A stretch of DNA of 64,000 nt from Candidatus Zixiibacteriota bacterium (GCA_049694315.1 JBAVQU010000061.1:38796-102795); one strand, 5' to 3'. Counted from the first letter of the stretch, positions 4,775-59,783 are shown. The notes: generated by a model from the sequence alone, not told the origin. Program-made: numbers and translations.

Positions 4775-4793
4775 GTAACTACCTCCCTCATGG

Positions 4794-7493
4794 TTAGAAG
4801 ATAAACTCAATCCCCCAGCGGACCGTTCGGGGGACGTCGTAGTTTCCCGGGTCCTTGGCCAAAAGGCGATGATAGCGGTTCACGTCCTCAGCCGTCAACG
4901 GTCCATCTCCGTCAGGATCGGCGGTCAGTTCATAATGATAGCCGTCATCATCTGGCTTTCCGGTGTTGGAATAGACGTGCAGCACGTTTCTTCGGTCGAA
5001 GAGGTTTTCCACTTCGGTGAAGAGCGAAAAGTGCGCATCTTGTGATTTGAACAGGTACAAGTCCTTGTTGAACTTCAAATCCACCTGATAGGTAGCAGGC
5101 ATCCTGCCCTCATTCAAAGCTCCCAAGCGGTGTCCTTGATCGTCCGTCTTGGTGTAAGGCATGCCGCTCCCATACTTGGTCAGCACATCCAGTCCCCATG
5201 CTCCGGGCAGGGTCAGGCCCGCCAGCTTTCGTCCCCAGTCCCTGGGAACCCGGTAGTCTAAGTCTACCGTCAGAGTGTGGCGTTGGTCGAAGTCCAGAGG
5301 ATATTCCCTCACCGGCCAAACCGGGGCACTGGTGCCTTGGGTGAAGTAGTCGTAGTAACCCTCATAGGCCGAGGAGGCATTGCCTTTTGCTATCATGTAT
5401 GAGTAGTTGATCGTGCCGGAGAGGTTGCTGTGGTTGGGTCTTCGGGTGAGGATAACGTCCAATCCCTTTACCGTCCCGTAATCGGCATTGGTGAACTGGG
5501 TATAGGAGCCTCCGGCATAGACCACCTCGCGGGTGGAGGCCAGGTTGTTCAGGTCTTTGTAATAGGTGGTGACCTTCATGGTGATGTCATCGCTCAAGGC
5601 ATGGTTCACGCCTAGCTCGTAGGCTACACTCTTTTCCGCCTTCATGTCCGGGTTTCCCAGAAGAGGAAAACCGGTGGACAGGTCGGCCTGAAGATTGGTG
5701 AACATGTCCTGATAGGGCGGAACCTGGAAATAGTAGCCATAGCTGAAATGTATCACCGTCCGGTCGGAGATGGGATGGGAGACGCCCAGACGCGGGCTTA
5801 GCTGAGTTTTTGCCCTGGTGTGAACCATTCGATCCTTGGTCACCGGATTGCTCCAGTAATCGATGTCTGCGTTCACGTAGTCCAAACGAAGACCTGCGTT
5901 CACGATTATGTCCTTCAGCTCAAGTTTATCCTGCAGATACACGGCGCCGTAATCGGGATTGACCTGGTACTTTTCTCCGTAAGGCTGGGCATTGAAAAAC
6001 TGTTTGTCGTCCCATCGCAATTGATTGGCCCGGTACTCTCCTCCAAGTTTGACCTGGTTATGCTTGTCCATCTGGCTCATCACGTCGAACCCCAGACTGG
6101 TGTAACTAGTGCTCTGATAATGATAGGCCGGATAGAAATCGGGAGCAGCGGTGAAACCGGTGTAAAAATACTGCTCCGCCGGGTTATAGTTGTCGTCATC
6201 AATTGTGCCGATGTATACTCCGTTGGAGTCTTCCTGATACCCGGGCCATTGATTCCAATAGAGGTTGAAGAGATGCTCTGGAGCCTGCTTAGTCTCGGTA
6301 TGGAAATGGTTAACCTTTATGGAGTAGAAGGTATGGTTGGATGAGGGACAGGTGAGTTTCGCCCCCAAACTGTACGACTGATTGCGAACTTTTCCCAATC
6401 CGTTCAAATTGAAATCATAGGAGATGTTGTTGACGTCTCTGTGCACATATCTCAACAGGTCCCTTTCGTAGTAATTGCCGTTCAATACCAGCTTGAGGTT
6501 GCCGGCAGGTTGTAGGTTTATCTTTCCCGTTCCGGTGGAGATGTCTTTCCGGTTATGCGGAAGATAATCGTCATTCCAGATCTTCTCTCCGGAGAAGAAA
6601 AAGGTGGCCTTGTCGGTCTGCTTGAGGGTCAAGGGACCGCCCAAGTTGACAACCAGGGAGTTGTTGTCGTTTCTCTGGAGTCTCCCAAATTCGCCGGTGT
6701 TCACCTGGTAGGTGCGAGCCAATCCGTCGTAAGCCTTGATTTTTCCGGAAAAGACCGGACCTCCTTCCCGGGTGATCGCGTTGACCACGCCGGAGAGGGC
6801 CTCGCCGTACTCCGCCGTGAAACCTCCGGTACTGACGTCCAACTCCTCAAGGGCATCGGGGGAAACTCTGGTCCCCGGCAGCCCCACCAGCTGATCCTGA
6901 ATGCAAATGTCGTCCAAGAAATAGCTCACCGTGGCCTCACGTCCCCCGCGAACGTGGAGGTAGCCACGATCGTCTACCACCGTACCCGCCAGGTTGGATA
7001 TGACCGGCTGTATTCCGACCGAATTGGGAAGGTTGTCCAGCTGTTCCCTGATCACCATGTCGGTGGAGGAAGTCAGGTCCTTCTGGATCAGTGGACGGGA
7101 AGCTATCACCGTCACCCCTTTTTTCAGTTCAATCGGGGCCGATTTCAACTGAAAATCAAGGGGAGTGGTGAGATCCAGAAGCACGGTCACCTGAGTCTGG
7201 GTGACTGTCTGGTAGCCGATCAGCGAAGTCTCAACGGTATAGGTCCCCACCGGAACGTTCAGAAAAAAGTACTCCCCGTCCTCATCCGCAGAGCTTCCGA
7301 TACTAGTGCCTCTGATCATTATCGTCGCACCGGGCAACGGCTCCTTGGTCTCCGCATCTCGAATCACCCCGGCGATCTTTCCAGCCGTGCCCGCCAAGGT
7401 GACCTGATGAAAAATCAAGATAAAAAGACAGGCCAGCAAAACTGCTCTTAGGCCCAACCTGATCGTCCCCTTAGGATATGTCTTCGTGGTCAC
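4794..7493 (-). CDS. SusC/RagA-like TonB-dependent outer-membrane transporter with an N-terminal carboxypeptidase-regulatory-like domain, plug and 22-strand barrel
   Basis: The N-terminus 'GKIAGVIRDAETKEPLPGATIMIRGTSIGSSADEDGEYFFLNVPVGTYTVETSLIGYQ' is a CarbopepD_reg-like domain. It is followed by a TonB-box/plug region and ends '...RWGIEFIF' with a terminal aromatic. It starts on GTG with an AAGGAGG SD. It sits 19 nt upstream of cargo 1. Confidence 0.8.
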   Translation of the reverse strand: MTTKTYPKGTIRLGLRAVLLACLFILIFHQVTLAGTAGKIAGVIRDAETKEPLPGATIMIRGTSIGSSADEDGEYFFLNVPVGTYTVETSLIGYQTVTQTQVTVLLDLTTPLDFQLKSAPIELKKGVTVIASRPLIQKDLTSSTDMVIREQLDNLPNSVGIQPVISNLAGTVVDDRGYLHVRGGREATVSYFLDDICIQDQLVGLPGTRVSPDALEELDVSTGGFTAEYGEALSGVVNAITREGGPVFSGKIKAYDGLARTYQVNTGEFGRLQRNDNNSLVVNLGGPLTLKQTDKATFFFSGEKIWNDDYLPHNRKDISTGTGKINLQPAGNLKLVLNGNYYERDLLRYVHRDVNNISYDFNLNGLGKVRNQSYSLGAKLTCPSSNHTFYSIKVNHFHTETKQAPEHLFNLYWNQWPGYQEDSNGVYIGTIDDDNYNPAEQYFYTGFTAAPDFYPAYHYQSTSYTSLGFDVMSQMDKHNQVKLGGEYRANQLRWDDKQFFNAQPYGEKYQVNPDYGAVYLQDKLELKDIIVNAGLRLDYVNADIDYWSNPVTKDRMVHTRAKTQLSPRLGVSHPISDRTVIHFSYGYYFQVPPYQDMFTNLQADLSTGFPLLGNPDMKAEKSVAYELGVNHALSDDITMKVTTYYKDLNNLASTREVVYAGGSYTQFTNADYGTVKGLDVILTRRPNHSNLSGTINYSYMIAKGNASSAYEGYYDYFTQGTSAPVWPVREYPLDFDQRHTLTVDLDYRVPRDWGRKLAGLTLPGAWGLDVLTKYGSGMPYTKTDDQGHRLGALNEGRMPATYQVDLKFNKDLYLFKSQDAHFSLFTEVENLFDRRNVLHVYSNTGKPDDDGYHYELTADPDGDGPLTAEDVNRYHRLLAKDPGNYDVPRTVRWGIEFIF

Positions 7494-22868: not shown

Positions 22869-23034
22869 GACCTGTGGGAAAAACATTGGGCCAGGACTTT
22901 GTTGCGCGGGCGAAACTCCAAGCATCTCCCCTATTGTGCTTTCTGATGAGCCCAGACGGGGAATACGGCGCGAAGCGAAAAGAGGACGAATTAGATACTC
23001 AAAAGCATCCATCTCAAAACAGGCTCTTTCTCGA

Positions 23035-24879
23035 ATGATGAGATTCGTTGGTCACGTGTCCGAAATGGCAAAATTGTCCTTTTTGATATTCCTTCTGTTA
23101 CCCGTACTTCTGCTGAAACCCGCCTTGGCTGCCCAGCTTAGGCTGGATTTCTCTCAGGATAATCGGACGTACGTATGGAACACCAGATTGGACTGTGACC
23201 GCAAGGTTGAAGCCGGCCTCTCCTGGGCTTTTACCAGCTCCATAAATTCCATGCTGACCAAAAAGTCAATCTTTTCGAATAATCAGAACCGGTGGCAGGA
23301 GAACGGCAATGTCGGCTTGAACTTAGATTACGGTTTCACCGGCCGGCTAAAAATCGGCGCGGTCTTTAGTCAGGAGACCAACTCCCTGGAACAAAAGAAA
23401 GTGACCAACTCGGTTTATGGCATCACCTCAGAATATGATTTCTTGGGGGTAAAGCTGGCTCAGATGCTGGGAGGGAAAAACATCGATCGCCGGTGGGAAC
23501 AGGGAAAGAGGAACGACGCCGGATTCAATCATCAGCTGGAGATTGCCTGGTCTCCGCAGCTTTTTACGGGATCGACCAGCCATATCTCGGTAAGCCAAAC
23601 CAGCTCGAGATTGAGCCATGTCCCGCTTTTGGAAAGAGATTTGAATCTCTCCTTTGCAAAGTCCTTCTCCCGAGATGACAGCCTCGAGTTCTTCTATCAG
23701 GAAGGCTGGTCCAAGAAAGGTTTCTACCAAGGAGAGCTTACCGATTCCCAGATTTACACCCAGCGAAGGACTCAGAGGGTGATCAGCCTCCGATCCTCCG
23801 CCGTGGTTCCTTTACAGATCAAAGTGGACTTCGACTTCGACTTCACCGGGAATGGTTATAAGTATTCGGGCAGACCGGGAGCTTTTTCATCCGTCCTCAG
23901 CAACAACTCGTCCAATTCTCTAAGTTTCAACCTCCGGACCGAGAGAAGTTTTTTCAAGCGGCTCAGCCTCGGAGGTTTTTACAAATACACTCAGACCGAA
24001 GAGGATTACTCAAATAATCAGAGGGATCAAACCATGAAAGGCGGCGAGTTGGGTGGGAATCTGGCCATGAGCATAAGTGACTTAGATTCCCTGCATCTTA
24101 TCGCCTCCATTGGGGTAACCTCATTCTATGCATCGCAGGTTTCAGCACAGCTGAATGATCGGGACATTCAGACTCTTTTCTCCTGGGGGGACTATCGGCA
24201 CGTCTTCAGCCGGTTTCTCTCCCTCCGCATGGAGGGCGGCTTTCGCAACTTCCATCAGGTTTACGTTTCCAATCGCCTCTCCGCCAACAACAATCACAAC
24301 CAGACCTACGTTCTCTCTCCCACGCTGATCTGGCGACCTCACTTTAGGCTGGATATCAGGCAGAACTACAATATTCAGGCCAATTATATCTACTATGATT
24401 ACGAGAAATCAAAAGAGAGCACCAACAACCGGCTCTTTCGTCGCGCCAGCAGCGGGACGAACATAGACTATTCTTTGACTCACCGCGTCATCTTCGGCTT
24501 GGGATACACGTACAAATACGAAGACTACGGTCAGCTCATCTGGAAGGACCAGTGGGTACAGAGACCAAGCTGGGAAAGGAGAACTCACACCATAGATCTC
24601 TCCGTTAAGTATGCACCATCGAAAAGCTGGGACCTTGTCCCGCAGTACACCTATGAGAGTAGGAGGTCGTGGGATCACTATACTGATGTGATGACCATGG
24701 AAAGAATGCGCACGTTAAGCGACAGGTTTCACCGGAACATGATCTCTTTGTCTTGCAGACATCTGACGGACGACCGCAATTATCTGAGTTTCAGCTGGGG
24801 CACCTGGGTGCAAAAGAGCACCGCCAGCGCCAAAGAGACCTCCAATTATGCCACCGTTTCAGTCAGCCGGATATTTTGA
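23035..24879 (+). CDS. Putative outer-membrane beta-barrel protein of unknown function
   Basis: The likely start is the ATG at 23035 or 23065; the signal peptide is 'MAKLSFLIFLLLPVLLLKPALAA'. It has an alternating amphipathic pattern rich in Y/F/W and a C-terminal '...VSVSRIF'. Confidence 0.5.
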   Translation: MMRFVGHVSEMAKLSFLIFLLLPVLLLKPALAAQLRLDFSQDNRTYVWNTRLDCDRKVEAGLSWAFTSSINSMLTKKSIFSNNQNRWQENGNVGLNLDYGFTGRLKIGAVFSQETNSLEQKKVTNSVYGITSEYDFLGVKLAQMLGGKNIDRRWEQGKRNDAGFNHQLEIAWSPQLFTGSTSHISVSQTSSRLSHVPLLERDLNLSFAKSFSRDDSLEFFYQEGWSKKGFYQGELTDSQIYTQRRTQRVISLRSSAVVPLQIKVDFDFDFTGNGYKYSGRPGAFSSVLSNNSSNSLSFNLRTERSFFKRLSLGGFYKYTQTEEDYSNNQRDQTMKGGELGGNLAMSISDLDSLHLIASIGVTSFYASQVSAQLNDRDIQTLFSWGDYRHVFSRFLSLRMEGGFRNFHQVYVSNRLSANNNHNQTYVLSPTLIWRPHFRLDIRQNYNIQANYIYYDYEKSKESTNNRLFRRASSGTNIDYSLTHRVIFGLGYTYKYEDYGQLIWKDQWVQRPSWERRTHTIDLSVKYAPSKSWDLVPQYTYESRRSWDHYTDVMTMERMRTLSDRFHRNMISLSCRHLTDDRNYLSFSWGTWVQKSTASAKETSNYATVSVSRIF

Positions 24880-24894
24880 TCGATTAGGGTCCCT

Positions 24895-25533
24895 ATGAAA
24901 ACATCTCTAGGATTTCGTTCTTATCGTCTCTGTGTCATCTCTCTGCTGCTGACCGCACAATTCTGTGGGTGGGGATGTAAGAATCCCTTTAAGACTAGAA
25001 GCTCCCCACCGCCAGTGGTCACCCAGGGCACCTGGGAGACTCCGGCCGAACCCAAGATAGTGCTTCAGAATTTGCTTCACGCGTACGCTGAGAGGATCAT
25101 GGTCAATTTCGCCCAGTGCCTGTCGGATTCTTTCAGATTCTCCGCCCCGGAGGATTCCGTGGATGCAGTCAATCAGGGCCGCGCCGATCTGTTTGCGCAA
25201 TGGGACAGATCGGCAGAGATCAGTGTCACCACTAATATTTTCAGCACCTTCAGCCCGAACAACGACTCATTGAGTTACGTTTTGTCGTTTCAGTCCATTC
25301 CGCCGGTTCCGGACGACATCACGGATACGGTAGCGGTTCTTTCGAGAAACTATGAATTGAGCGTGCTTAACTTGACGTCGACGCCTCCTGAAACCACTTT
25401 GGTAAAGGGAACAGCTACTTTCTACATGAAGCAGAGCTTCTTGAGCTGGTGGAGCATCTATTTCTGGAGTGACATTCAGGCCTCACCCGGAAACGACGAC
25501 TGGGCAGACTTCAAGGCCAGATTCAGAAAGTGA
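24895..25533 (+). CDS. Hypothetical lipoprotein (paralog A)
   Basis: It has a signal peptide with the lipobox-like motif 'LLLTAQFCGWGC'. It lies 15 nt after the barrel gene. Confidence 0.45.
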   Translation: MKTSLGFRSYRLCVISLLLTAQFCGWGCKNPFKTRSSPPPVVTQGTWETPAEPKIVLQNLLHAYAERIMVNFAQCLSDSFRFSAPEDSVDAVNQGRADLFAQWDRSAEISVTTNIFSTFSPNNDSLSYVLSFQSIPPVPDDITDTVAVLSRNYELSVLNLTSTPPETTLVKGTATFYMKQSFLSWWSIYFWSDIQASPGNDDWADFKARFRK

Positions 25534-25546
25534 GATTGGTCCTTTC

Positions 25547-26116
25547 ATGCACGATTTCTCGGTGAAATCAAGAAGAGCTAAGCTTTGCATTTTGCACTTG
25601 GCTTTCTGCATCCTTCTTTGCGGCTGTTTCAATCCATTTTCTCCGTCGGTGACTGCCCCCGGAGTCCTCAAGCCCATTGCTCGACAGGTTGATCCGGATA
25701 GCGTTCTGTACAACTTCAGATACGCTTACGAGAACCGCGACAGCTTGGTCTACGAGAACTGTCTGGATCAGGAGTTCTTCTTCAAGTATTGGGACCAAAC
25801 CGCGGCTGGGGTGGGCGAAGTGGAAACCGGGTTTCCCAGGAGCGAGGACATCCAGGTCACTAAAGATCTTTTCAGGTTTTTCGACGATATCCGGTTGGAT
25901 AGGTGGAGCGTGGAGCAGGTGGCTGACACCGTGGTAGGAGACGAAACCTGGAAAAGGCGAAACGTGAGTTTCGATCTGTTGGTCTGGGATACCAACGGCG
26001 ATTACAATTATCAGTATTATCAAGCCTCGGGACGTGCCGAGTTCTCTTTCCGACGTTCCGCCAAGGATAATATGTGGCGCATCGTCCACTGGGTAGATAG
26101 ATCTGTTTCACCCTGA
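25547..26116 (+). CDS. Hypothetical lipoprotein (paralog B)
   Basis: The start was moved to ATG 25547; the signal peptide plus cysteine is 'LHLAFCILLCGC'. Its 'CFNPFSPSV...YNFRYAYENRD' segment parallels 'CKNPFKTRS...LLHAYAERI' in the preceding gene. Confidence 0.45.
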   Translation: MHDFSVKSRRAKLCILHLAFCILLCGCFNPFSPSVTAPGVLKPIARQVDPDSVLYNFRYAYENRDSLVYENCLDQEFFFKYWDQTAAGVGEVETGFPRSEDIQVTKDLFRFFDDIRLDRWSVEQVADTVVGDETWKRRNVSFDLLVWDTNGDYNYQYYQASGRAEFSFRRSAKDNMWRIVHWVDRSVSP

Positions 26117-28245: not shown

Positions 28246-29532
28246 ATGGATAAGTTCGTGATCGAGGGTGGAAAAAGACTTGCCGGAAGCGTGAAGATCC
28301 AATCCTCCAAGAATGCGGTTCTGCCCATCTTGGCCGCTTCCCTGCTTTCGGAAAAGGGAGAGACCTGCATCCACGACGTGCCTTATCTGGCGGATGTGGA
28401 TACCATGCTCAAAGTCCTGCAGCGACTCGGAGCTAAAGTCAAAACCCATTCTGGCGATAAACGCGACGTGTCGCCTTGCAGCCGGACGGTGGTCATAAAC
28501 GCCGAGCAGCTCAGAGGCTATGAAGCGCCCTATGATCTGGTCAGAAAGATGAGAGCTTCTTTCCTGGTAATGGGACCTCTTCTGGCCCGATTCGGAAGGG
28601 CCAGGGTCTCTCTTCCCGGTGGATGCGTACTGGGTCCCCGGCCCGTTAACCTGCATCTCTCCGGTTTTGCCCGGATGGGAGCAAAGATTAGGGAAGAGCA
28701 TGGCTATGTAATTGCGTCCGTAGACAGACTCTCCGGCAACGTGATCTTTTTCGATCGTCCCAGTCATACCGGCACCGAAAATATCTTGATGGCCGCCTCT
28801 TTGTCATCCGGAAAGACTACCATCGTAAATGCCGCCTGCGATCCGGAAGTAGTGGATTTGGCCAGGTTTCTTATTCTGATGGGCGCAAAAATCACCGGGG
28901 CCGGGAGTTCTACTATCTGTGTAGAAGGGGTCAGAAGACTTAAGGCCGCAGAATACCGGCCCATCCCGGACCGCCTGGATTCGGCTACTTTCATGATGGC
29001 GGCCTGCATCACCTCAGGAAACGTGGAGCTGAAAAACGTCCTGCCGGAGCATCTTACTATGGTTACGCTCAAGCTTAGAGAAATGGGTGCCGACATCGTA
29101 GAAAAGAAGAACCAGCTCAAAGTCAGAGGTCCTAAGAAGCTTCGGCCCGTCTCCATCACCACCTATCCCCATCCCGGATTTCCCACAGACGTACAGGCAT
29201 CCATCATGGCGCTGACCTGTATCGCCGATGGAACCAGCCAGATACGGGAGACCGTGTTTGAGGACCGCTTCACTCACGTGATGGAGCTTTGCCGGCTCGG
29301 TGCAGACGTGAAGGTTTCGGGTGACAGAGCCACCATCAATGGAGTGCCCCGACTGAAGGGTGCATCGGTTATGGCCTCCGACATCAGAGCCGGCGCGGGT
29401 CTTACTATCGCCGGACTTGCGGCAGAAGGAGCTACGGAGGTGTTAAGGGTGTACCATATCGATAGGGGCTACGATCACCTGGAGAAGAGACTGGCCCAAT
29501 TGGGTGCAAACATAAAGAGGATGAGAAGCTGA
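28246..29532 (+). CDS. murA: UDP-N-acetylglucosamine 1-carboxyvinyltransferase
   Basis: It carries 'KIQSSKNAVLPILAASLL' and 'PGGCVLGPRPVNLH'. It has the characteristic length of 428 aa. Confidence 0.9.
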   Translation: MDKFVIEGGKRLAGSVKIQSSKNAVLPILAASLLSEKGETCIHDVPYLADVDTMLKVLQRLGAKVKTHSGDKRDVSPCSRTVVINAEQLRGYEAPYDLVRKMRASFLVMGPLLARFGRARVSLPGGCVLGPRPVNLHLSGFARMGAKIREEHGYVIASVDRLSGNVIFFDRPSHTGTENILMAASLSSGKTTIVNAACDPEVVDLARFLILMGAKITGAGSSTICVEGVRRLKAAEYRPIPDRLDSATFMMAACITSGNVELKNVLPEHLTMVTLKLREMGADIVEKKNQLKVRGPKKLRPVSITTYPHPGFPTDVQASIMALTCIADGTSQIRETVFEDRFTHVMELCRLGADVKVSGDRATINGVPRLKGASVMASDIRAGAGLTIAGLAAEGATEVLRVYHIDRGYDHLEKRLAQLGANIKRMRS

Positions 29533-29852
29533 GAAGGAATGTTTCTGCCGGTCCGGGTCTTGAGGAACGTTTTGTTTCGCGGTGGTGAACCCGGCTGGCA
29601 CGAAAGTCTGCTCGCCTTTTCGCGGATCGGCACTCTGGAGAGTAGAGATGGAAAGAGGTTCGGCATGATCGATTCACCGGGGAATGAAGGCTTTCCCCGA
29701 CTTTCGTCACACTTACACAGACCTGACGGGCCGGGCAGGAGCATCGAACGGGGCTTCGGTTCTCATGGGCTACCAATCTCAAGCAAATCAAACGCGGTAT
29801 TTTCGGGTTTCGGTTTGGAGATAAGTTGCGATACCGCAAGGAGACGGAAATA

Positions 29853-32800
29853 ATGAGATATTCATCCAAGCTAAGGCTCATCTTCGGTCTAATGCTCTTC
29901 TTCTTTGCTGGCCGCTCAGTCGCCCAGGAGCCTAATTTCGGAAAGAACAAGGTACAGTATAAATCCTTCGACTGGCATTACCTTCAAACTGAGAAATTCG
30001 ACATTTACTACTATCAGGGAGAATATCATCTGGCTAAGTTCGCCGCGGGCGTCCTGGAAAAAGCATATTCGAAGGTCAAAAAAGAGCTGCGGTACGATTT
30101 GAGTAAGAAAATTCCGGTAATCCTATACGACTCCCCGAATGACTTCCAACAGACCAATGTGGTTCCCGACTTAATCGAGGAAGGGGTGGGGGGATTCACC
30201 GAGTCGTTCAAGACCAGAGTGGTGGTGCCCTTCACCGGCTCTTACGAGGACTTCCGTCATGTGCTTCATCACGAGCTAACCCATGCCGTGGTGTACGACA
30301 TGCTGTATGGAAATCTTCTCAGTTCCATCCTCAGCCGGGGATACCTTTTCCAGCTTCCCCTGTGGTTTGCCGAGGGATACGCCGAATACTCCTCCCGGGG
30401 CGGCTGGGACATCGAGGCCGACATGGTGTTAAAGGATGCCACCATCGAGGGTTACTTAACCCCACTGGATCAGGCGGGAGGTTTTCTCGTTTACAAGGAA
30501 GGACAATCCGCCATAGGTTACATTGTGGAGAAGTACGGAGAGGAGAAGCTCTCTGAGATTTTGAACCGGGGCAAAAGAGAACTCTCCATGGACAAAGCTC
30601 TAAAGTCGGCCATCGGCTTGGATCAGGCGGCCTTCTCCGAGGAATGGATGAAGGCGCAGCGCAAGAAATACTGGCCGGAGATCTCCTTAAGAAAGGAGCC
30701 CAAGGAATTTGCCAAGGAGCTCACGCATCATCCCAAGGACGGCTCCTATGCCAATGAGAGACCGGCCTTCTCCCCTACCGGCGATCGACTGGCCATCTTT
30801 TCGGATAGAAGTGGTTATACGGAAATCTACATTATCTCTGCCATCGACGGAAAGGTTTTGAAGAGGCTGGTAAGAGGAGAAAGATCGGGGGATTTGGAGT
30901 CACTGCACTCTTGGCTCAGTGGTCTCACCTGGTCTCCGGACGGCAAGAGCCTGGCTTTTGTCTCAAAAAACCATGGCAAGGACGTCCTCTGCTTGGTCAG
31001 GACCAAAGACGGAAAGATATATTCCAGGTTTAAGTTCGATTTGGATGTTATGCGGTCTCCGTCCTGGGCGCCGGACGGCAGCCAGATCGCTTTCGTAGGA
31101 GTCAAGGACGGGAAAGCTGATCTCTACACCTGCGAGATCGGCACCCGCAAGCTGACCCGACTTACCGATGACGACTATGATGACGAAGATCCCAGCTTCT
31201 CTCCGGACGGCAGGTCCATCGCCTTCAGCTCCGACCGACCCCAAAAGGCCAGTGACGATTCGTCGGGTTACAAGTATGGGCATTTTGGTCTCTATCTTTT
31301 GGAGCTTGGTTCCTGGAAGATCACACCGGTTACATCCGACGAGGGAAACAGCATTTCACCATCTTGGTCGCCTGACGGCAAGAAGATCTGTTTTGTCTCG
31401 AACCGAAACGGGATTAACAACCTGTATGTATTGGATCTGGATAGCACGACGATTGAACCCATCACCAATGTGCTCGCCGGCTGTTTTTATCCTTCCTGGT
31501 CGACCGAGGGAGATAAGATCGCCTTCTCCGGCTTCCAGAAGGGGGGATGGGATGTGTTCCTGATAAAGGACATCAAGCCAGCCGTGGCAAAAGGGGATTC
31601 CCTCTCCAAGACCCTTTATCTTCTGACATTGGGAAAAGATACCACTTCGACACGCATTGATACCACCAAGAAAGAACCTACCCCGGAAAAGGTGGATTTT
31701 AGTTCCTATGTGTTCAAGGCCGGAAAGAGCGAGCTTGACAGCCTAACGGAGGTGATGGAGAGGAAAAAGACTCCTCCGGAGAAAAAAGACACCATGGTCT
31801 ATAAGCTTCCTAATGGCGAGTACGCAGAGCACAAATACAAGCTCAAGTTTTCCCCGGATTTGGTATCGGGTGGACTAACCTACGATACCTTCTTTGGCTT
31901 TCAGGGTCAGTCGTCCATCGTCATCAGTGACATGCTGGGGGATCACTCGTTCGGCTTGGCCACGGACATCGTCAATACCATAGACCAGAGTAACTTCCAG
32001 TTGTCTTATCAATACAGCGGCAGGCGGCCGAACGTGGGAGTAGCCATTCTGCATACCAAGTATTATTATGTGGATAACCTAAACCGCCTCTTCTCCGATC
32101 GAGTTTACGGGGCCTTGGGTTATCTCTCGTATCCCTTCAGCAAGTTCACCCGGGTGGAGCTGGACGCCACCCAGATTTCGGTGGATCGAAAGTATTATGA
32201 TCCCAATCCCATAACTTCAGCTTATGATGACCGGAGCGTGAAAGCGCTCATAGCCACCCTTTCTTGGATCAACGACACGGTCATCTGGGGATTTACTGGC
32301 CCCATCAATGGGTCCAGGAGTTTGCTGTCCTACGAGTATGCACCATACGTAACCCCAAGGAGCCTCACTTATGGTGCCGCCTTGATGGATTATCGCCGAT
32401 ACTTTCATTTCCTCAAAAGCTATGATTTCGTCTTCAGATTGACCAGCGGCTTCTCGCACGGTCGGGACCAGAAGACGTTCTTCTTGGGAGGAGTATCCAA
32501 CTGGATAGGTCCCAGTTTGGGCTCGGGCGACATCTATGGATTGAACAGCCTATATTTTGGGAACATCGTAACTCCGCTGCGGGGCTACAGGTATTTCGAT
32601 GTCAGCGGGTCTAAGTTTTTCTTGTCCAACTTCGAGCTGCGTTATCCCTTTATAGAGCACCTGATCATGAAATTTCCTCTCCCTCTAACCCTCCACTACA
32701 TCAGCGGCGCCATGTTCTATGACATGGGGGCCGCCTGGGACGAGACCAAGAAATTCAAGGGTGGGACCTCGGTGGACCATACCAGGCTTAAGGACATAAA

Positions 32801-32933
32801 AGCCGGCTTCGGATTTGGCGCCAGAGCCAATCTCGGTCTCTTTGTTCTGCGGTACGATGCAGGCTGGGCCACTGACTTCGACCGGGTGTCTGCCAAACCT
32901 AAACATTATGTGTCGTTGGGCGCGGAATTCTAA
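29853..32933 (+). CDS. Atypical Omp85-superfamily outer-membrane protein: signal peptide, an HExxH peptidase-like N-domain, PD40/TolB-type beta-propeller repeats, and an Omp85 (D15 surface antigen) C-terminal barrel
   Basis: It starts at ATG 29853 with an AAGGAG SD 9 nt upstream. It has 'HHELTHAV'. There are six or more repeats of the form 'SPDG..IAF.S.R.G...LY'. The C-terminus 'LRGYRYF...ELRYPF...SGAMFYDMGAAW...AGFGFGARANLGLFVLRYDAGWATDF...HYVSLGAEF' matches the BamA/Omp85 barrel C-terminal signature. Confidence 0.65.
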   Translation: MRYSSKLRLIFGLMLFFFAGRSVAQEPNFGKNKVQYKSFDWHYLQTEKFDIYYYQGEYHLAKFAAGVLEKAYSKVKKELRYDLSKKIPVILYDSPNDFQQTNVVPDLIEEGVGGFTESFKTRVVVPFTGSYEDFRHVLHHELTHAVVYDMLYGNLLSSILSRGYLFQLPLWFAEGYAEYSSRGGWDIEADMVLKDATIEGYLTPLDQAGGFLVYKEGQSAIGYIVEKYGEEKLSEILNRGKRELSMDKALKSAIGLDQAAFSEEWMKAQRKKYWPEISLRKEPKEFAKELTHHPKDGSYANERPAFSPTGDRLAIFSDRSGYTEIYIISAIDGKVLKRLVRGERSGDLESLHSWLSGLTWSPDGKSLAFVSKNHGKDVLCLVRTKDGKIYSRFKFDLDVMRSPSWAPDGSQIAFVGVKDGKADLYTCEIGTRKLTRLTDDDYDDEDPSFSPDGRSIAFSSDRPQKASDDSSGYKYGHFGLYLLELGSWKITPVTSDEGNSISPSWSPDGKKICFVSNRNGINNLYVLDLDSTTIEPITNVLAGCFYPSWSTEGDKIAFSGFQKGGWDVFLIKDIKPAVAKGDSLSKTLYLLTLGKDTTSTRIDTTKKEPTPEKVDFSSYVFKAGKSELDSLTEVMERKKTPPEKKDTMVYKLPNGEYAEHKYKLKFSPDLVSGGLTYDTFFGFQGQSSIVISDMLGDHSFGLATDIVNTIDQSNFQLSYQYSGRRPNVGVAILHTKYYYVDNLNRLFSDRVYGALGYLSYPFSKFTRVELDATQISVDRKYYDPNPITSAYDDRSVKALIATLSWINDTVIWGFTGPINGSRSLLSYEYAPYVTPRSLTYGAALMDYRRYFHFLKSYDFVFRLTSGFSHGRDQKTFFLGGVSNWIGPSLGSGDIYGLNSLYFGNIVTPLRGYRYFDVSGSKFFLSNFELRYPFIEHLIMKFPLPLTLHYISGAMFYDMGAAWDETKKFKGGTSVDHTRLKDIKAGFGFGARANLGLFVLRYDAGWATDFDRVSAKPKHYVSLGAEF

Positions 32934-33607: not shown

Positions 33608-34165
33608 ATGTCAAGTGACGAGACTGTGACTGCACTTTTTGCAATGGCAGTCACCGCAGAGGAAAGATGCAAGGAATTATATTCCGGGTTGGCAAAAAGA
33701 TTCTCTCACCTACCGGACGCGGCCCGTTTCTGGATGGGAATGGCGATGGACGAAGTGCAGCACCACCAGAAACTGGAGAACGTCCGCGACTCTCTTACCC
33801 TACAGCAGCTTCATTCGGCAGCAGATCACGTTATGATCGAGAAGGCAAGACAGGCTCTGACCTTCTCAGCTGCGGAAAGCTCGAACTCGGTCGCGACATT
33901 GGATGACGCCTATGCGCTGGCTCGTGAGTTGGAGCGTTCCGAAGTCAACACGGTATTTGCATTCGTGATGAATGAGTTCATTCCCAGCGAGAAACAGAAA
34001 GATTTTGTTCTCTTGCAGCTGGAACACCACACCCAAAAGATAGTCAAATTCCCCGAAACCTTTGGCGACGCCGAATGGAGAAGGAGTATCGCTGCTGGGC
34101 CCATGCCCGCCGGTGCGCAGTCCGCTCTTTCTCGCCGAGAAACCATGAGCGCCCCGGACAAATAA
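33608..34165 (+). CDS. Hypothetical ferritin-like/rubrerythrin-like four-helix-bundle protein
   Basis: It has glutamate-rich helices with a 'DEVQHH' (ExxH) motif. The assignment is weak. A GGGAGGTGAATC SD precedes the ATG. Confidence 0.4.
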   Translation: MSSDETVTALFAMAVTAEERCKELYSGLAKRFSHLPDAARFWMGMAMDEVQHHQKLENVRDSLTLQQLHSAADHVMIEKARQALTFSAAESSNSVATLDDAYALARELERSEVNTVFAFVMNEFIPSEKQKDFVLLQLEHHTQKIVKFPETFGDAEWRRSIAAGPMPAGAQSALSRRETMSAPDK

Positions 34166-51277: not shown

Positions 51278-53779
51278 CTACTTCAGAACGACCACCTTCC
51301 CCCACTCTACCTGGCCTCCCGGGGCTTCCATCTTGAAGAAATAGACTCCATTTGCGACCATGTTTCCTTTTTCGTTCTTTCCATCCCAGGCTTCATCATA
51401 TTCTGCGCCTCCGGACCGGGACTGGCCGTCTAACAAGGTTGTGACCAAATTCATGGCGAAATCGTATATTTTTATGCTGACCGGTCCATCCTGTCTGGGC
51501 CGATAGTGAATTCTGGTCACCTGTCCCCCTGCTACCACGGGAGAGAAAGGGGAAGGATAGGCGTAAGCGGTCTCCGATCCCTTCGATCCGATGGGGGCGG
51601 CCACACGGGTGACCTCCCACGAGGCGCCTTCATCCGCGCTCTTGACCAGACCCTCAGAGTTTCCCGCCCACACTTCACCTCCGATTATGGCCACCGAAGA
51701 GAATTCGGAGCTGTAAATTTTGTCTCCGGTGGGTGCGCTGTCTTGCATGTAATTGAAGACTCCCCAGCTACTTCCTCCATTGTAAGACCTCTTAAGTCCG
51801 GAGCCGGTAGCCGCCCAGACCACGGAGTCGTCAAAGGCAAAATTCCAAACCTCGTCCCCCAAAAGCGTCGTGCTCCAGCTGTCCCCGTCGTCGGTGCTGA
51901 AGCTGGCGCCATAATTACCGGAGTAAGTGGGCTGCGTAGCGGCCCAGATGACCTTTTTCCCGTTGTATTTTTGTATACCCAAGCCGACCACCCAATCTCC
52001 GGTCGTGCCGTTGACATAGGAATTGTAATTGAGCACGGTATCGGAGACGTCGCGATAATTGTATATGAATTTGTAAATTCCTGCCGCAGTTCCCGCCCAG
52101 ATGGCTTTCTTGAAGGAGGGAGCCAGCTTGGTCACCTTCCAGGTTTTGCCGTCATCGCTGGACTTGGCCAATCCATCTTCTGATCCGACCAATAGCGTGA
52201 TGGTTGAAGTGTCTGGCACCACACAGACCGAGGTGAAGTAAGAGGGAATGATAAGCTCTCCCGACGTGGAGTCAATGATTTCGAAGCTGGACCAGGATCC
52301 TCCTCCATCGGTCGATTTCTTCAAACCTTCGTGGGTAGCCACCCATACGGTGGAATCCGAAAAGGCAAAATCACGCGTCTGGATGTCGCTCAAATAAGTG
52401 TGCCAGGTTTGACCTTCGTCCGTGCTTTCATAATTCAGCGGGCTGGAAAGCACGAAGCCGCCCACCCAGACAACACTGTGGCCCGCCAAAGGCTGAACCG
52501 CCACCCGGACCACCTCGAAGGGTTCCACCGTTTCCTCATAGAGATACCGAATGACGGTATCGCCGGAATCGGTGCCGGTGTAAACGAACTTGTATAAACC
52601 GTCCTTCGTTCCCGCCCAGATAACCTTGGGATATGTCGTCGTCGGGTCGACGGCCAGGCTCGTGAAAATATCTTTATCCTCAAGTTGCCCCTGGTTGAAT
52701 CTTCTTTCGGCTGATGAATCTACAAAAACGCTATCCCAGGTTTTCCCCCGATCAGTGCTGCGAATTAAGCCTCCCTTTCCGCAAGCCGCCCATATGACGG
52801 TGTCTACCAAGGCCATGTCCAATGCGAACTCATCCAAGGAACCTGCCTGCCCTTGGGCTGGTCGGGAGGTGTCCCAGGTGGCACCATAGTTGGTGGTATA
52901 ATTGAAATCCGTTCCGGTCAGCGAAGGCAGAAGCGGCAGAGGGTGAGTTTCTTCCAGCTTGTATGACCCCGTCCAGAAGAACGAGCTATCGCCTGCCAGG
53001 CAAAAGATCCCGTTGGAGTTCAGTCCACTCGAAGTATCGAATGGGAAAAAGCTCTGTCCCGCATCTGCGCTGGTAAATAGACCATTCTCCGTTGCCACCC
53101 AAATCAATTTGCCATCATAAGCTATGTCGTTGACCGAGTTCTTTAGCCTTTTCTCCACCGGACACATGGTGTCAACGGCTACCGAAAAATAGCGGTCGTT
53201 CAAATAGAGATACTGTTCCTGCTCAAAGTCCAACCGGGAAAGCGAATCGACAAAAACGTTCTCCCAGTTCTGCCCGCCGTCCCGTGAACGAATCAGCCCC
53301 CCGTACCAGCAGGCCGCCCAAACTGTAGTATCGTCCAGGGCGATATCGTAAACCACCTTCCCCGCGAAATCCGTCTGCGTCGGAATGAACGAACCCCAGT
53401 TCTGTCCCAGATCACTGGTTTGGTTAAAGCCCTTCCCGTAAGGGATCACTTCCCCTTTGACCAGCTTGGTGTAGGATGCCGACAACCACAAGGTTCTTCC
53501 CGAGGCGGCCAATGCAGAGATATCGTTGGAGTTCAGACCAGTCTGTTGATTGTAAGTCACCCAGCTTGCGCCCCGGTCGGTGGTTTTGGATAATCCGTTG
53601 CCTGTCCCCACCCAGATGACGGTGGTGTCTCCCAACGTCATAAAGACTATGTCTCCGACGCTGTTGCTGGCAAATCCCGGAGATGGTGCATCCAAGCTGA
53701 GGCTCATCCCCTCCCAGGATTCGGCGGGAAAAAGGACTACGGTGAATACCAGGATCATCAGGAGCAGACTTCGTGTCAT
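51278..53779 (-). CDS. BNR/Asp-box repeat (sialidase/sortilin/Ycf48-like beta-propeller) secreted protein with a T9SS type-A C-terminal sorting domain
   Basis: It has at least nine 'S/T-x-D-x-G-x-T/S-W' Asp-box repeats, for example 'TDRGASWV', 'DGGQNWE', 'TDRGKTWD' and 'TDEGQTWH'. The CTD reads 'VSIKIYDFAMNLVTTLLDG...WDGKNEKGNMVANGVYFFKMEAPGGQVEWGKVVVLK'. An AGGAGG SD precedes the ATG. Confidence 0.75.
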   Translation of the reverse strand: MTRSLLLMILVFTVVLFPAESWEGMSLSLDAPSPGFASNSVGDIVFMTLGDTTVIWVGTGNGLSKTTDRGASWVTYNQQTGLNSNDISALAASGRTLWLSASYTKLVKGEVIPYGKGFNQTSDLGQNWGSFIPTQTDFAGKVVYDIALDDTTVWAACWYGGLIRSRDGGQNWENVFVDSLSRLDFEQEQYLYLNDRYFSVAVDTMCPVEKRLKNSVNDIAYDGKLIWVATENGLFTSADAGQSFFPFDTSSGLNSNGIFCLAGDSSFFWTGSYKLEETHPLPLLPSLTGTDFNYTTNYGATWDTSRPAQGQAGSLDEFALDMALVDTVIWAACGKGGLIRSTDRGKTWDSVFVDSSAERRFNQGQLEDKDIFTSLAVDPTTTYPKVIWAGTKDGLYKFVYTGTDSGDTVIRYLYEETVEPFEVVRVAVQPLAGHSVVWVGGFVLSSPLNYESTDEGQTWHTYLSDIQTRDFAFSDSTVWVATHEGLKKSTDGGGSWSSFEIIDSTSGELIIPSYFTSVCVVPDTSTITLLVGSEDGLAKSSDDGKTWKVTKLAPSFKKAIWAGTAAGIYKFIYNYRDVSDTVLNYNSYVNGTTGDWVVGLGIQKYNGKKVIWAATQPTYSGNYGASFSTDDGDSWSTTLLGDEVWNFAFDDSVVWAATGSGLKRSYNGGSSWGVFNYMQDSAPTGDKIYSSEFSSVAIIGGEVWAGNSEGLVKSADEGASWEVTRVAAPIGSKGSETAYAYPSPFSPVVAGGQVTRIHYRPRQDGPVSIKIYDFAMNLVTTLLDGQSRSGGAEYDEAWDGKNEKGNMVANGVYFFKMEAPGGQVEWGKVVVLK

Positions 53780-56232: not shown

Positions 56233-59200
56233 TTATCGCACCACCGCGAATTTCCCGATCTTTTCTCCGTATGGCGAATCCACATGGTAGATGTAAACGC
56301 CGGATGCGATCTTCTGGTTGTTTTTGGTCAAAAGATCCCAGTTCTCGTTGCCGTCCAGATCCGCGCTGTTATGTTCCAAGGTGCGAAGAAGATCACCGGA
56401 CAGAGTATATATCCGGAGGGTGCATCTGTTTGGAAGGTGGGTGAAGGCGATCCGGGAATAATCCCCACTGGGCTCCCAGTTGTTACGAACGATGTAAGGA
56501 TTCGGCACCACCTTTATTCGATTCAAATCCACCTGGTTCGCTTCTATATGCTTCTCGTTAGTCTTGATCGTGAAGACATCCTCGTGCGTATTGGGTTTCC
56601 AGGTTATCAGCAGGGCATTATCTCCCTTGGCCCAGACCGGATCTACTTCATTGAAAGCAGCGCGGTAGTCCCAATCGTGTCGCGACATCGGTTTTGAGGT
56701 GTCGAGGCTCCAATAGGCGGCGTTGCCGGGATCATGATCGGGGTTGGAGAAGAAATCCTCCGCATAAGTGTTGCCGCTGGTGTTTTTGTCCAGAAGAATG
56801 ATGTAATCGTCGGTATGGAATCTCCCGTCTCCATAGAAGTCATACATCAAAGGCCAGATCCTGACGTCATCGCTGACGTCCTCGACGTTCGGACCCAGAT
56901 CCCAGACTTCAAAGGGGACGCTTATGTGGGTGGTATCTGCCCGGAAATGGCCCCAGGGAGTATTACCCTGAACGTCCCGATAGAACCCTTGAGCGGTGGT
57001 ATCCCCTGGACCAGCCACGAATTTGATTCGAAAATTCCTGAAGTCACCGTTTGCCAGAGCGTTCCTCCCGCCGATATAGACCTCGTTGAAGAACCAAGAC
57101 AGCCCATGAGAGTTCAATTTGGTCAGATCGGCGTTGAACCCCAATTCGGCCGGTCCCATCACCTTAAACACCATTCCGTCTACCACTGGGTAGTCGTTGT
57201 TCCCAGTCTGGTTGGCCATGTTATCCAACAACACTGTATCTGCGGTCACGTCCTTGAGATACCAGAGCAGTGGAATGTCTCCTTCATGGAACCCCACCTC
57301 ATACACATGTCCGGTGACCGCATCCGGCTGCACAGTCGTCACCTGCACCGTGCCATCGCTACTTCCAGGCGCGTGCGTCACATTGTATGCGCTTCCTTGG
57401 ACCAGTCCCGAGGCGTTAGAGCGGGGAGTGACCGCAACCGCGCTTATCCCGTTCTGGAGGCTACGGGGCGAAGCAAAGGGCTGGAAGTCGTAGGCCACCA
57501 CATCGTAGTAATAGGTCATTCCGTTGATCAGTCCGGTATCTACGTAAGAGTAGCCCAGTTGACTATTCGCACCTTCGGGCTCTTCCAGGTGCCCGGTGAT
57601 TTCAAATACGAGGTTATCGGTCGGCACGTACGAGGGATTGTCCCCCTTGAAATGGATCAGCATTCCGCCGAATAACAGATAACAGTCGTCGAAATAGTTG
57701 TCGTAAGTCCCATCCGCTATTCTTTCGGCGGTGCTTCGGCTCACGAAGAGAGTATCCCCTTCCAGAGAAAACACCTCAAAAAGATAAGGTGGCTCGCCGG
57801 GGGGTAACCAGTGATTCTCTTTTTTTGAAGGAGGAATGCCTACTCCGAGGGTCAGGTCAGTGACGGAAAAGGAGGTATCGGCTTTCACCTGCACCAGGTA
57901 CTGGTGGCCGGTAAAGAGTGACGTGGAGCCTTCCACCAGAATGTAGTTCTCCGTGTTCAACTCATCATAGGTGACCGCTCCGGCAAACGTGGGGCCGGAG
58001 AGTTGCTGGACATCGACGTGTCGCGGCGTCACACTGCTCTTGTCCCAGGAGGAGAGAAGCTCGAAGCTTCCGGGCAGGCCGGTGGTGCTTCGGTAAAGCC
58101 GGTAGCCTTCGAAGTCCATCTCTTTGTAGTTGGGATCATACAAGGGATTAGTGGGATCGCTGGTGAATTTGAAGTATGGATCTTTCGAGGACTCCGACGA
58201 GTTATCCCAGCCGATCAAAACCTTCTTGTCGTCGGGAACCACTGAGATGTTGGGCTTGTCCGGAGGACGGGGAAGGATGAATCCGATATCGTAAATCGAC
58301 TGGGCAATGTCGGCCACCCTGGGAAGCTGAACTCTGTCCGGAGCCATCATCACTGCCACTACAACCCTGACGGTGTCACCAACCACCGTGTCGATGCTGG
58401 CTATTTTCAGGGTGTCCGTGGATGAATTCCAGCTGTATACTGTGTCGACCACTGTGTCTCCCACTGCTGCCAAGAGGAATGGCCCGGTGTTCTGGAAGAA
58501 TCTTTGGTCATTCGGACTGGTTCCGCTTCCCAAATCGAAAGGAGCATAACGCTGGTCACCCGACGTCGGGTAGTTGTGTCCGGCCATGATCAGGAACTTC
58601 TCCGGCTCGTTCGCGGGATCACCCGACTCCAGATCCGAAACCTTGAAGGAGGTTAACCCCAGGGAATTTCCCCTTCTAACGTCTTTCACATAGACCCCAT
58701 TGCCGTTTACGTTCAGGGAATCGTCGCTGATCTGGTCATCACCGTTCAAATCCACGTCGTAAGTGGCCAGAGGGCTTTCCAGAAACTTGTAGGCTAAATA
58801 GCCCGGTATCCTGCCGAATCCCTGTTCGGCGTTGTCGCTGTCGTAGGCATACCCCAAATTCCGGGTCTTGTCAATGCCGACCAGATCGTCTCTGGCATTG
58901 GGCCCGATATCGGGATCGCACATGACCGAGACAAAGCAGTTCCTTATGGGTCTTTTGTCCTCTCTGATGTTTACGATCTGGTAGATGAAGAAGTGAATGG
59001 TCTTGTTGTTGTCGTAGTTCCAGGAGTGGGTGCGTTGTATCACCTTGACTCCCAAGCCGAATTTGGCAATGTCTTTTCCGTCTCCGGCGTTGGAGTTTAT
59101 GCCGGTGTCCCACCTTTCTGGGTCCTGATCGTCATACTCCGTATAGCTGTCTTCAATCCCAACTAATATCGGATTGTCGGCATTGTCCCGTAAGGGCCAG

Positions 59201-59718: not shown

Positions 59719-59783
59719 GTCAAATCTCCTTTTCAATGATTCTTTGCTCTCACGTCAATGCTGGCTTCATGGTTTGATCACCC

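Follow-up and report, generated by a model that had tools for sequence, protein, structure and literature searches.

Proteins of the Omp85 superfamily are central to the building of the bacterial outer membrane, and to our knowledge every characterised member inserts or translocates proteins. The subfamilies that have exchanged their POTRA domains for enzymes remain unexplained, and it is only lately, through PlpD, that an enzyme of this sort was recognised to be able to reside in the periplasm. The Omp85/TpsB superfamily has been divided into ten subfamilies, one of which, termed "WD40-like" or "WD40-Omp85", has no POTRA domain and carries a TolB-like propeller (Heinz & Lithgow 2014, Front Microbiol 5:370, PMC4104836). 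Its profile consists of PF01103 plus one to five copies of PF07676 (Table S2), and for about 97 members the Phyre2 matches comprise 4k3b/4c00 (BamA/TamA) for the barrel and 2w8b/2ivz (TolB) for the propeller at 100%, along with a column headed "best aminopeptidase hit" that gives 1z5h, 4kxd, 4ar1/4ar9, 3qnf and 4fgm at about 99% (Table S3, PMC4104836). The main text of that survey covers only the propeller, proposing a BamA-BamB-like scaffold, and the peptidase domain appears only in the supplementary column (PMC4104836). Beyond the 2014 survey, our literature searches turned up only two mentions of the subfamily, both from 2024: one notes its "divergent WD40 and peptidase domains" (Hawley et al. 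2024, PMC11358297), and the other calls the metalloprotease, WD40-like and patatin-like subfamilies uncharacterised (Hanson et al. 2024, PMC11116518). Here, we describe a member of the WD40-like subfamily encoded at 29853-32933 (+ strand) of a 64,000-nucleotide (nt) stretch of DNA from Candidatus Zixiibacteriota (JBAVQU010000061.1), the whole of which is called the window below. This protein probably retains an active zinc peptidase on its Omp85 barrel.

The protein is made of five parts in the order signal peptide, gluzincin-type peptidase, six-bladed PD40 propeller, disordered linker and 16-strand Omp85 barrel. All of its Pfam matches exceed their gathering cut-offs. A full-length AlphaFold2 model, built on 65 homologues (predicted local distance difference test, pLDDT, 78; predicted template modelling score, pTM, 0.75), lays out a signal helix at residues 2-23, an alpha/beta zincin at ~40-290, the propeller at 300-571, a linker with pLDDT<50 at 596-647 and the barrel at 666-1023. 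The first-pass annotation of this gene had proposed an Omp85 barrel preceded by an HExxH zincin and at least six PD40 repeats in place of POTRA domains, and the Pfam, AlphaFold2 and Foldseek results given below bear out each of these elements. Conservation was followed in three sets, which comprise 65 close homologues (51-79% identical), 80 loci drawn from GTDB species representatives (33-77%) and 44 more distant representatives (29-50%).

The barrel occupies residues 659-1026 (31827..32930, +) and ends in ...SLGAEF. PF01103 matches residues 712-1007 with 39.8 bits against a cut-off of 24, the model contains exactly 16 strands with a long L6 loop, and a Foldseek search of the whole model against the PDB returns the BamA barrels 6qgw, 6fsu and 7nre at E ~5e-10 to 2e-9. 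At about 366 residues the barrel is larger than the 300 or so first assigned to it, the one imprecision of the first-pass annotation. The loop 6 motif VTPLRGY (residues 906-912; 32568..32588, +) corresponds to the Omp85 hallmark (V/I)RG(Y/F); R910 and G911 are invariant or nearly so in the close and distant alignments, and an RG[YF]-type motif is found in nearly all 80 loci. FYDMG (residues 955-959; 32715..32729, +) corresponds to the Omp85 (F/G)xDxG motif, with F955, D957 and G959 invariant in the 65 close homologues and nearly so in the 44 distant ones, and we take it to be the strand-13 motif that pairs with the L6 motif in established Omp85 barrels. Nearly all complete homologues in the 80 loci end in F or Y. 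By its strands, PF01103 match, L6 and FxDxG motifs and aromatic C-terminus, the protein is a member of the Omp85/TpsB superfamily. No POTRA match was found in it by Pfam at E<=1, PF07244 is present in 0 of the 44 distant homologues, and the AlphaFold2 secondary structure has no beta-alpha-alpha-beta-beta unit between propeller and barrel.

The N-terminal domain (residues ~26-292; 29928..30728, +) is predicted to be a gluzincin (clan MA(E)) from its HExxH motif and following Glu, its PF13485 match and its thermolysin-like catalytic fold. Peptidase_MA_2 (PF13485) spans residues 73-266 with 39.3 bits against a cut-off of 32.4. The zinc-binding and catalytic motif, H140 E141 L T H144 (30270..30284, +), is marked out by its invariance across the alignments, and the conserved helix WFAEGYAEY (30363..30389, +) carries the predicted third zinc ligand, E174, together with the invariant residues G175 and E178. 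E174 sits 29 residues past H144 and aligns in a profile search with the ligand helix WWSEGVAEY of collagenase 7wss. When the domain was modelled separately (residues 24-300, pLDDT 78), its best Foldseek matches were peptidase domains of M9 collagenases (ColT 4ar9, ColG 7z5u, and the Grimontia/Vibrio structures 8jt1, 7wss and 7esi) at TMq 0.46-0.57, followed by the M1 aminopeptidases PepN, IRAP, ERAP1 and F3; the list includes 4ar1, 3qnf, 4fgm and 1z1w. A profile of the domain searched against PDB sequences likewise places Grimontia collagenase 7wss first (E 0.023), with the HExxH motif, the WxxEGxAEY helix and a YxxG element in alignment. In M1 enzymes the spacer from HExxH to Glu is 18 residues; the 29-residue spacer found here and the absence of GxMEN rule out membership of the M1 aminopeptidases.

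The catalytic residues are among the most conserved of the whole protein. HExxH, W171, E174, G175, A177 and E178 are invariant in the 65 close homologues. HExxH is kept in 79 of the 80 loci, the remaining locus being truncated, and neither motif is disrupted in any locus that includes the region. Across the 44 distant homologues only 19 columns of the entire protein are invariant, and these include H140, E141, H144, E174, G175, E178, Y214 and G217. This is not the set of positions that a pseudo-enzyme in decay would preserve, and the peptidase is therefore probably active. A further element, GGFTE at residues 113-117, is invariant in the 65 homologues; it precedes HExxH by 23-27 residues, in a loop that the model predicts with low confidence, and any correspondence with GxMEN or with the double-Gly of collagenases would be conjectural. 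The surrounding stretch, residues 97-119 (window 30141-30209, FQQTNVVPDLIEEGVGGFTESFK), is nearly all invariant in the same homologues yet has pLDDT<50 in both models, which suggests that a loop close to the active site is mobile and matters for function, perhaps as a flap or an edge strand in substrate binding.

Between the peptidase and the barrel lie the propeller (residues ~296-572; 30738..31568, +) and the linker (residues 573-658; 31569..31826, +). PD40 matches six stretches of the propeller with 147.7 bits against a cut-off of 20.9, and the model forms 23-24 strands into six four-stranded blades of the TolB/Tricorn type. TolB gives the best match to residues ~355-570, with sequence matches to E 3e-28 and a whole-model Foldseek match at E 2e-13. 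Propellers of S9 peptidases are also among the Foldseek matches, and homologues carry precomputed matches to PF26549 (Tricorn_N) and PF26550 (Tricorn_2nd), which represent the tricorn-protease propellers. Disordered and POTRA-free, the linker is rich in D, A, E, S, T and P and devoid of Cys, and its length varies from 44 to 199 residues across 81 homologues, whereas the remaining three domains hold their length.

The product of the gene, 1026 residues plus a stop codon, is identical to NCBI protein P0001 from a Candidatus Zixiibacteriota metagenome-assembled genome (MAG), which is labelled "BamA/TamA family outer membrane protein". The open reading frame (ORF) has two candidate starts (29826/29853..32933). 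A ribosome-binding site, AGGAGA (29839..29844, +), stands 8 nt ahead of the ATG at 29853, and GGAG and this ATG form the sole invariant block in an alignment of the region between murA and the gene from five close relatives. The ATG at 29853 is thus the likely translation start, given the position and conservation of the ribosome-binding site and the match to the 1026-residue NCBI protein, and the same evidence led us to drop the TTG at 29826. Residues 1-24 (MRYSSKLRLIFGLMLFFFAGRSVA, followed by Q; 29853..29924, +) have the character of a Sec signal peptide and have no lipobox Cys. The region forms a hydrophobic helix at residues 2-23 in the model, and a small-x-small sequence, SVA, precedes Q25, which is invariant in the 65 homologues, so that cleavage before Q25 is presumed.

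Despite its NCBI name, the protein is not BamA or TamA proper, which is ruled out by the absence of POTRA domains and by a score of 27.9 bits against a cut-off of 297 for TIGR03303 (OM_YaeT, BamA). Other NCBIfam models also remain below threshold, namely TolB (TIGR02800, 166 bits against 343), the TamL exception model (31.3 against 400) and Omp85_fam (39.5 against 200). Since all of these scores fall below their cut-offs, the protein is neither a BamA/TamA nor a TolB equivalog. Identity with the TolB of the Tol-Pal system is ruled out by the TIGR02800 score and by the zincin that takes the place of the TolA-binding N-domain, and a patatin-type Omp85 such as PlpD is ruled out because neither PF01734 nor PF07244 matches by Pfam.

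The protein belongs to the WD40-like Omp85 subfamily, sharing its domain profile, its TolB-type propeller and its aminopeptidase/collagenase templates for the N-terminal domain. A search of 1.84 billion cluster representatives (50% identity) with the N-terminal domain alone yielded 721 matches at E<=1e-30, rising to 2102 at 1e-10 and to 4087 at 1e-3, and most of the top 150 matches are 950-1130 residues long. Among the 44 distant homologues, PD40 is detected in 44, Peptidase_MA_2 in 40, Omp85 at E<=0.001 in 23 (the barrel aligns in all) and POTRA in none. The first-pass annotation had regarded the architecture as new unless it proved to be a well-populated annotated family, and that claim falls: the subfamily was catalogued in 2014 (PMC4104836) and counts 2102 clusters at E<=1e-10. 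The architecture has been known since 2014 and is populous, and the protein described here is its member from Zixibacteria, a phylum outside the 2014 set. Caldithrix abyssi is represented in Table S3 by H1XQ58, H1XRH5 and H1XP27 (PMC4104836). Our protein is 40% identical over residues 28-1026 to C. abyssi P0413, which we do not equate with any accession of that table. Named relatives come from Zixibacteria, Eisenbacteria, Marinimicrobia, Calditrichia, Bacteroidota, Rhodothermia and Coatesbacteria. Cultured organisms with a member of the family include C. abyssi, Rhodothermus marinus, Cytophaga hutchinsonii, Myxococcus and Vibrio vulnificus, and Echinicola vietnamensis is represented in the 2014 list by L0G1A4. 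The other Table S3 accessions presumably represent Bacteroidetes, Rhodothermus/Salinibacter, Ignavibacteria, Chloroherpeton, Cloacimonas, Gemmatimonas, myxobacteria, Geobacter, Vibrio/Photobacterium and Leptospiraceae. Source labels of the relatives disagree with one another, ranging over "Tol biopolymer transport system component", "PD40 domain-containing protein", "DPP IV N-terminal domain-containing protein", "peptidase S9", "peptidase MA family metallohydrolase" and "BamA/TamA family outer membrane protein".

We propose that the protein is an outer-membrane-anchored periplasmic zinc metallopeptidase that, assisted by its propeller, processes or clears envelope proteins, a reading to which we give equal chances of being right and wrong. 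After Sec export and cleavage of the signal peptide, the 16-strand barrel would be inserted into the outer membrane, with ...GAEF as the usual beta-signal, and the linker, propeller and peptidase would all lie in the periplasm, attached by a flexible tether whose length varies between homologues. The pTM of 0.75 is a hint that their arrangement is a defined one. H140, H144 and E174 would hold the zinc and E141 would serve as general base. The adjoining propeller may capture or filter unfolded polypeptide for the active site, as in tricorn protease and the S9 oligopeptidases, and the barrel would be mainly a membrane anchor that may also position the enzyme next to BAM/TAM. A periplasmic location of the enzyme module appears most likely by analogy, because the N-terminus of strand 1 in Omp85 barrels is periplasmic and because self-export of PlpD, the one Omp85 protein formerly supposed to export its own N-terminal enzyme domain ("type Vd secretion"), has been overturned. 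The conservation of the lumen-closing L6 RGY and FxDxG motifs of BamA/TamA we count on the same side. Capture or filtering of unfolded polypeptide for the zincin is likewise, by analogy, the most likely task of the propeller, whose matches are led by TolB, a protein that binds disordered peptide "boxes", followed by the S9 propellers and the Tricorn families. The physiological role is the least certain step. Protein processing or clearance at the inner face of the outer membrane would be the most likely one, with the protein as a built-in equivalent of proteases that associate with BamA, such as BepA, and we favour it because of the envelope-gene context and the fixed position of the gene across the phylum. 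Substrate capture or processing in the periplasm, as suggested by the first-pass annotation, would then remain the most reasonable functional reading.

The gene context on which this role depends differs between lineages. In the window, murA (UDP-N-acetylglucosamine enolpyruvyl transferase; 28246..29532, +) adjoins the gene, and tblastn places murA directly upstream on the same strand in all 57 informative Zixibacteria-type loci (those with enough upstream DNA), down to ~41% identity of the target protein. The murA gene call in locus L081 carries PF00275. The intervening gap has an approximate median of ~82 nt in these 57 loci, against 320 nt in the window (29533-29852), where it contains a spurious-looking ORF of 104 residues (29539-29853). 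An RNA element in the 320-nt gap was considered and rejected, as there was no Rfam match in the whole window, the fold z-score was -0.93, and conservation was confined to the ribosome-binding site and ATG. Of the two envelope neighbours named by the first-pass annotation, murA is conserved phylum-wide, whereas lepB is conserved in the closest relatives only, as are rplS-trmD-rimM-rpsP-ffh and the ORF at 33608-34165. In Eisenbacteria-type loci the order is tamA (three POTRA domains plus Omp85), tamB, the homologue and uvrD (L051 1898-13043, with gaps of 3-14 nt; also L056, L064, L077, L078 and L080), and although TamA and TamB are merely 23-33% identical between these loci, the order is nonetheless conserved. 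In two Marinimicrobia-like loci, mlaE starts 0-2 nt past the stop codon of the homologue (L065 7009-10902; L067 7905-11803). At one locus the surroundings include glycosyltransferases, murA, murI and an Amidase_3 gene, with murI and Amidase_3 not conserved elsewhere; mlaE, murI and Amidase_3 are each limited to one or two loci. Among the loci examined, the gene thus lies in core neighbourhoods, many of them related to the envelope, and in none devoted to nutrient uptake. No BamA, TamA or TamB is encoded elsewhere in the window, whose large ORFs comprise two TonB-dependent receptors, a radical-SAM protein, a BNR protein and unknowns.

The serious alternative to an envelope role, which we consider unlikely, is that of a periplasmic nutrient oligopeptidase, with the same topology and chemistry, that trims imported oligopeptides while the propeller excludes folded proteins and the barrel is a passive anchor. 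The likeness of the propeller to those of S9 peptidases and the Tricorn families would suit such an enzyme, as would the likeness of the N-terminal domain to M1 aminopeptidases and tricorn-interacting factor F3 (Foldseek; Table S3, PMC4104836). The carriers are mostly protein-degrading members of the Fibrobacteres-Chlorobi-Bacteroidetes (FCB) group, and the 3-4 entries that several genomes each have in Table S3 would fit substrate diversification (PMC4104836). However, among the loci examined the homologue never stands beside TonB-dependent receptors or peptide transporters. Its conserved neighbours are murA and tamAB, the phylum-wide murA-adjacent position in Zixibacteria suggests a core gene, and there is no obvious reason for a scavenging enzyme to be tethered by an Omp85 barrel.

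Surface display is less likely than either periplasmic role, and we regard it as improbable. Here the protein would export itself in the autotransporter or type Vd manner, the linker threading the barrel so that peptidase and propeller degrade extracellular protein outside the cell. The succession of N-terminal enzyme, long disordered linker and C-terminal barrel recalls autotransporters, the nearest solved folds are secreted collagenases, and the 2014 survey brings up the possibility of such export for another, related subfamily, the "Metallo" Omp85 proteins (PMC4104836). Yet PlpD, the prototype for such export, keeps its enzyme domain in the periplasm (PMC11116518), no genes for extracellular degradation lie nearby, and export would require zincin and propeller, 550 residues together, to pass in unfolded form and with no source of energy through a barrel in which the lumen-closing L6 and FxDxG motifs are conserved.

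A scaffold role, as suggested by Heinz & Lithgow, has a slim chance. The barrel would be an insertase or a TAM-type partner, the propeller a scaffold for accessory proteins in a BamA-BamB-like fusion, and the zincin fold a non-catalytic binding module. This idea, set out in the main text of PMC4104836, would account for the invariance of the barrel hallmark motifs and several other barrel residues, and for the position of the gene directly after tamA-tamB in Eisenbacteria-type loci. The invariance across the family of the catalytic Glu, both His and the third ligand argues instead for catalysis. The propeller has six TolB-type blades where BamB has eight, and neither the protein nor any of the 44 distant homologues has a POTRA domain to receive substrates or TamB. 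Very improbable, finally, is an outer-membrane-tethered TolB paralogue whose propeller binds a Pal/OmpA-type peptidoglycan-associated lipoprotein and which helps to couple the outer membrane to peptidoglycan or has a part in cell-wall turnover, while the peptidase processes a cell-wall-linked partner, because the kinship of the propeller with TolB in sequence (E 3e-28; TIGR02800 166 bits) and fold, the conserved upstream murA, and the murI and Amidase_3 genes nearby at one locus are set against a TIGR02800 score far under the 343-bit cut-off, the zincin in place of the TolA-binding N-terminal domain of TolB, and the lack of conservation of the murI and amidase neighbours.

Several observations also weigh against the envelope-processing peptidase that we favour. 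The fold matches of its N-terminal domain are modest, with Foldseek probabilities of 1.0 but E ~1e-3 and a profile E of 0.023, and folds like that of the M9 collagenases typically belong to secreted enzymes. Were the barrel a mere anchor, the Omp85 hallmark motifs and D693, Y719, D808, R848 and Y850 would not be expected to stay invariant. Lineages other than those described above have unrelated neighbours (mutS, a SPOR protein, restriction-modification genes), and the Eisenbacteria loci conserve the unrelated uvrD on the downstream side just as tightly as tamAB on the upstream side. Because of this, synteny within a phylum is weak functional evidence. Literature searches by domain words and UniProt accessions gave no functional study of any WD40-like member.

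It is possible, and we offer this only tentatively, that the whole WD40-like Omp85 family, the present gene included, is a dedicated machine for envelope quality control or processing, an active zinc protease and propeller trap mounted on an Omp85 barrel beside TAM/BAM and acting on outer-membrane or cell-wall-associated proteins. If so, PlpD would be joined by a second case in which the Omp85 scaffold is used for an enzyme rather than an insertase, and the linkage to murA in Zixibacteria and to tamAB in Eisenbacteria would be explained. A quality-control protease of this kind would be a new player in envelope homeostasis across FCB-group phyla and myxobacteria.

Some features of the loci and the window stand apart from these questions. 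Many "binchicken" MAGs titled "uncultured Ignavibacteria" (L002, L004-L007, L013, L018 and others) have homologues 50-76% identical to the protein and the Zixibacteria-specific murA synteny, and their "Ignavibacteria" labels are probably wrong; P0101, labelled "Verrucomicrobiae", likewise has the murA synteny. In L065 and L067, which are MAGs labelled Marinimicrobia/Lentisphaeria, a lone mlaE is followed by radA and tgt, and neither mlaF nor mlaD was seen alongside. The window itself contains two copies of a two-gene arrangement (4794-7493 with 2120-4810, and 59784-62678 with 56233-59736, all on the - strand), each consisting of a TonB-dependent receptor with a CarboxypepD_reg N-domain and then a large protein without a Pfam match. 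The large proteins, of 895 and 1166 residues, are paralogues (31% identity over ~490 residues, E 1e-53) that share a conserved C-terminal tail with KFAV(I/V)(K/R) as its end, and the pairs could be a recurrent receptor-plus-surface-protein cassette. Two adjacent ORFs, 24895-25533 (+) and 25469-26116 (+), encode proteins of 212 and 215 residues that have lipoprotein-like N-termini (..GC and ..CGC) and are distant paralogues, 26% identical (E 5e-12). As listed they overlap by ~65 nt, and the second probably starts further downstream. Upstream of this pair lies an ORF of 647 residues (22936-24879) without a Pfam match. An 832-residue protein encoded at 51278-53779 (-) has BNR/Asp-box repeats and a C-terminal FlgD_ig-like domain, and is possibly a secreted or surface glycosidase-like protein.

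Comparison with known systems places the protein most closely with the WD40-like Omp85 subfamily, with which it shares PF01103, several PF07676 repeats and the absence of POTRA domains; 4ar1, 4ar9, 3qnf, 4fgm and F3 occur both in Table S3 and in its own Foldseek list. The 2014 account is without an analysis of catalytic-site invariance, linker variability or synteny, and what we add is this invariance, the collagenase-like geometry of the metal site, the variable disordered tether, and the lineage-wide syntenies with murA and tamAB. Domain by domain, other relatives emerge. With the peptidase domain of M9 collagenases (ColG, ColH, ColT and the Vibrio/Grimontia enzymes) the protein has in common HExxH, the xEGxAEY helix with the third ligand, the YxxG element and a long spacer from HExxH to Glu, unlike the 18 residues of M1. 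It differs in that identity is only 12-17% at TM 0.46-0.57 and that activator, collagen-binding and PKD domains are absent, and nothing suggests collagen as its substrate. TolB shares the six-bladed PD40 propeller and is the best match for residues ~355-570, but our protein is without the N-terminal domain of TolB and is covalently joined to an outer-membrane anchor. In tricorn protease with its factor F3 and in the S9 prolyl oligopeptidases, as may be the case here, a beta-propeller beside a peptidase restricts or channels substrates; the N-terminal domain resembles F3/M1 and the propeller matches Tricorn_N, Tricorn_2nd and S9 propellers. Those are cytosolic serine-protease systems or separate proteins, whereas our protein combines propeller and gluzincin in one chain with an outer-membrane anchor.

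Two further systems resemble the protein in its predicted function or general plan. BepA is a periplasmic HExxH zinc protease of family M48 with protein-binding TPR repeats that acts on outer-membrane proteins at BAM. It is a separate soluble protein from another zincin family, with TPR repeats rather than a propeller, and the likeness is a functional and hypothetical one for which we claim no homology. Experiments on PlpD showed that its patatin domain is not secreted but remains periplasmic (Hanson et al. 2024, PMC11116518). PlpD is a homodimeric patatin phospholipase with one POTRA domain, whereas the Zixibacteria protein combines a zincin and a propeller with a long disordered linker and has no POTRA domain. 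Both carry an N-terminal hydrolase in place of a POTRA array on an Omp85 barrel, a scaffold that would in each case have been reused as the anchor of an enzyme.

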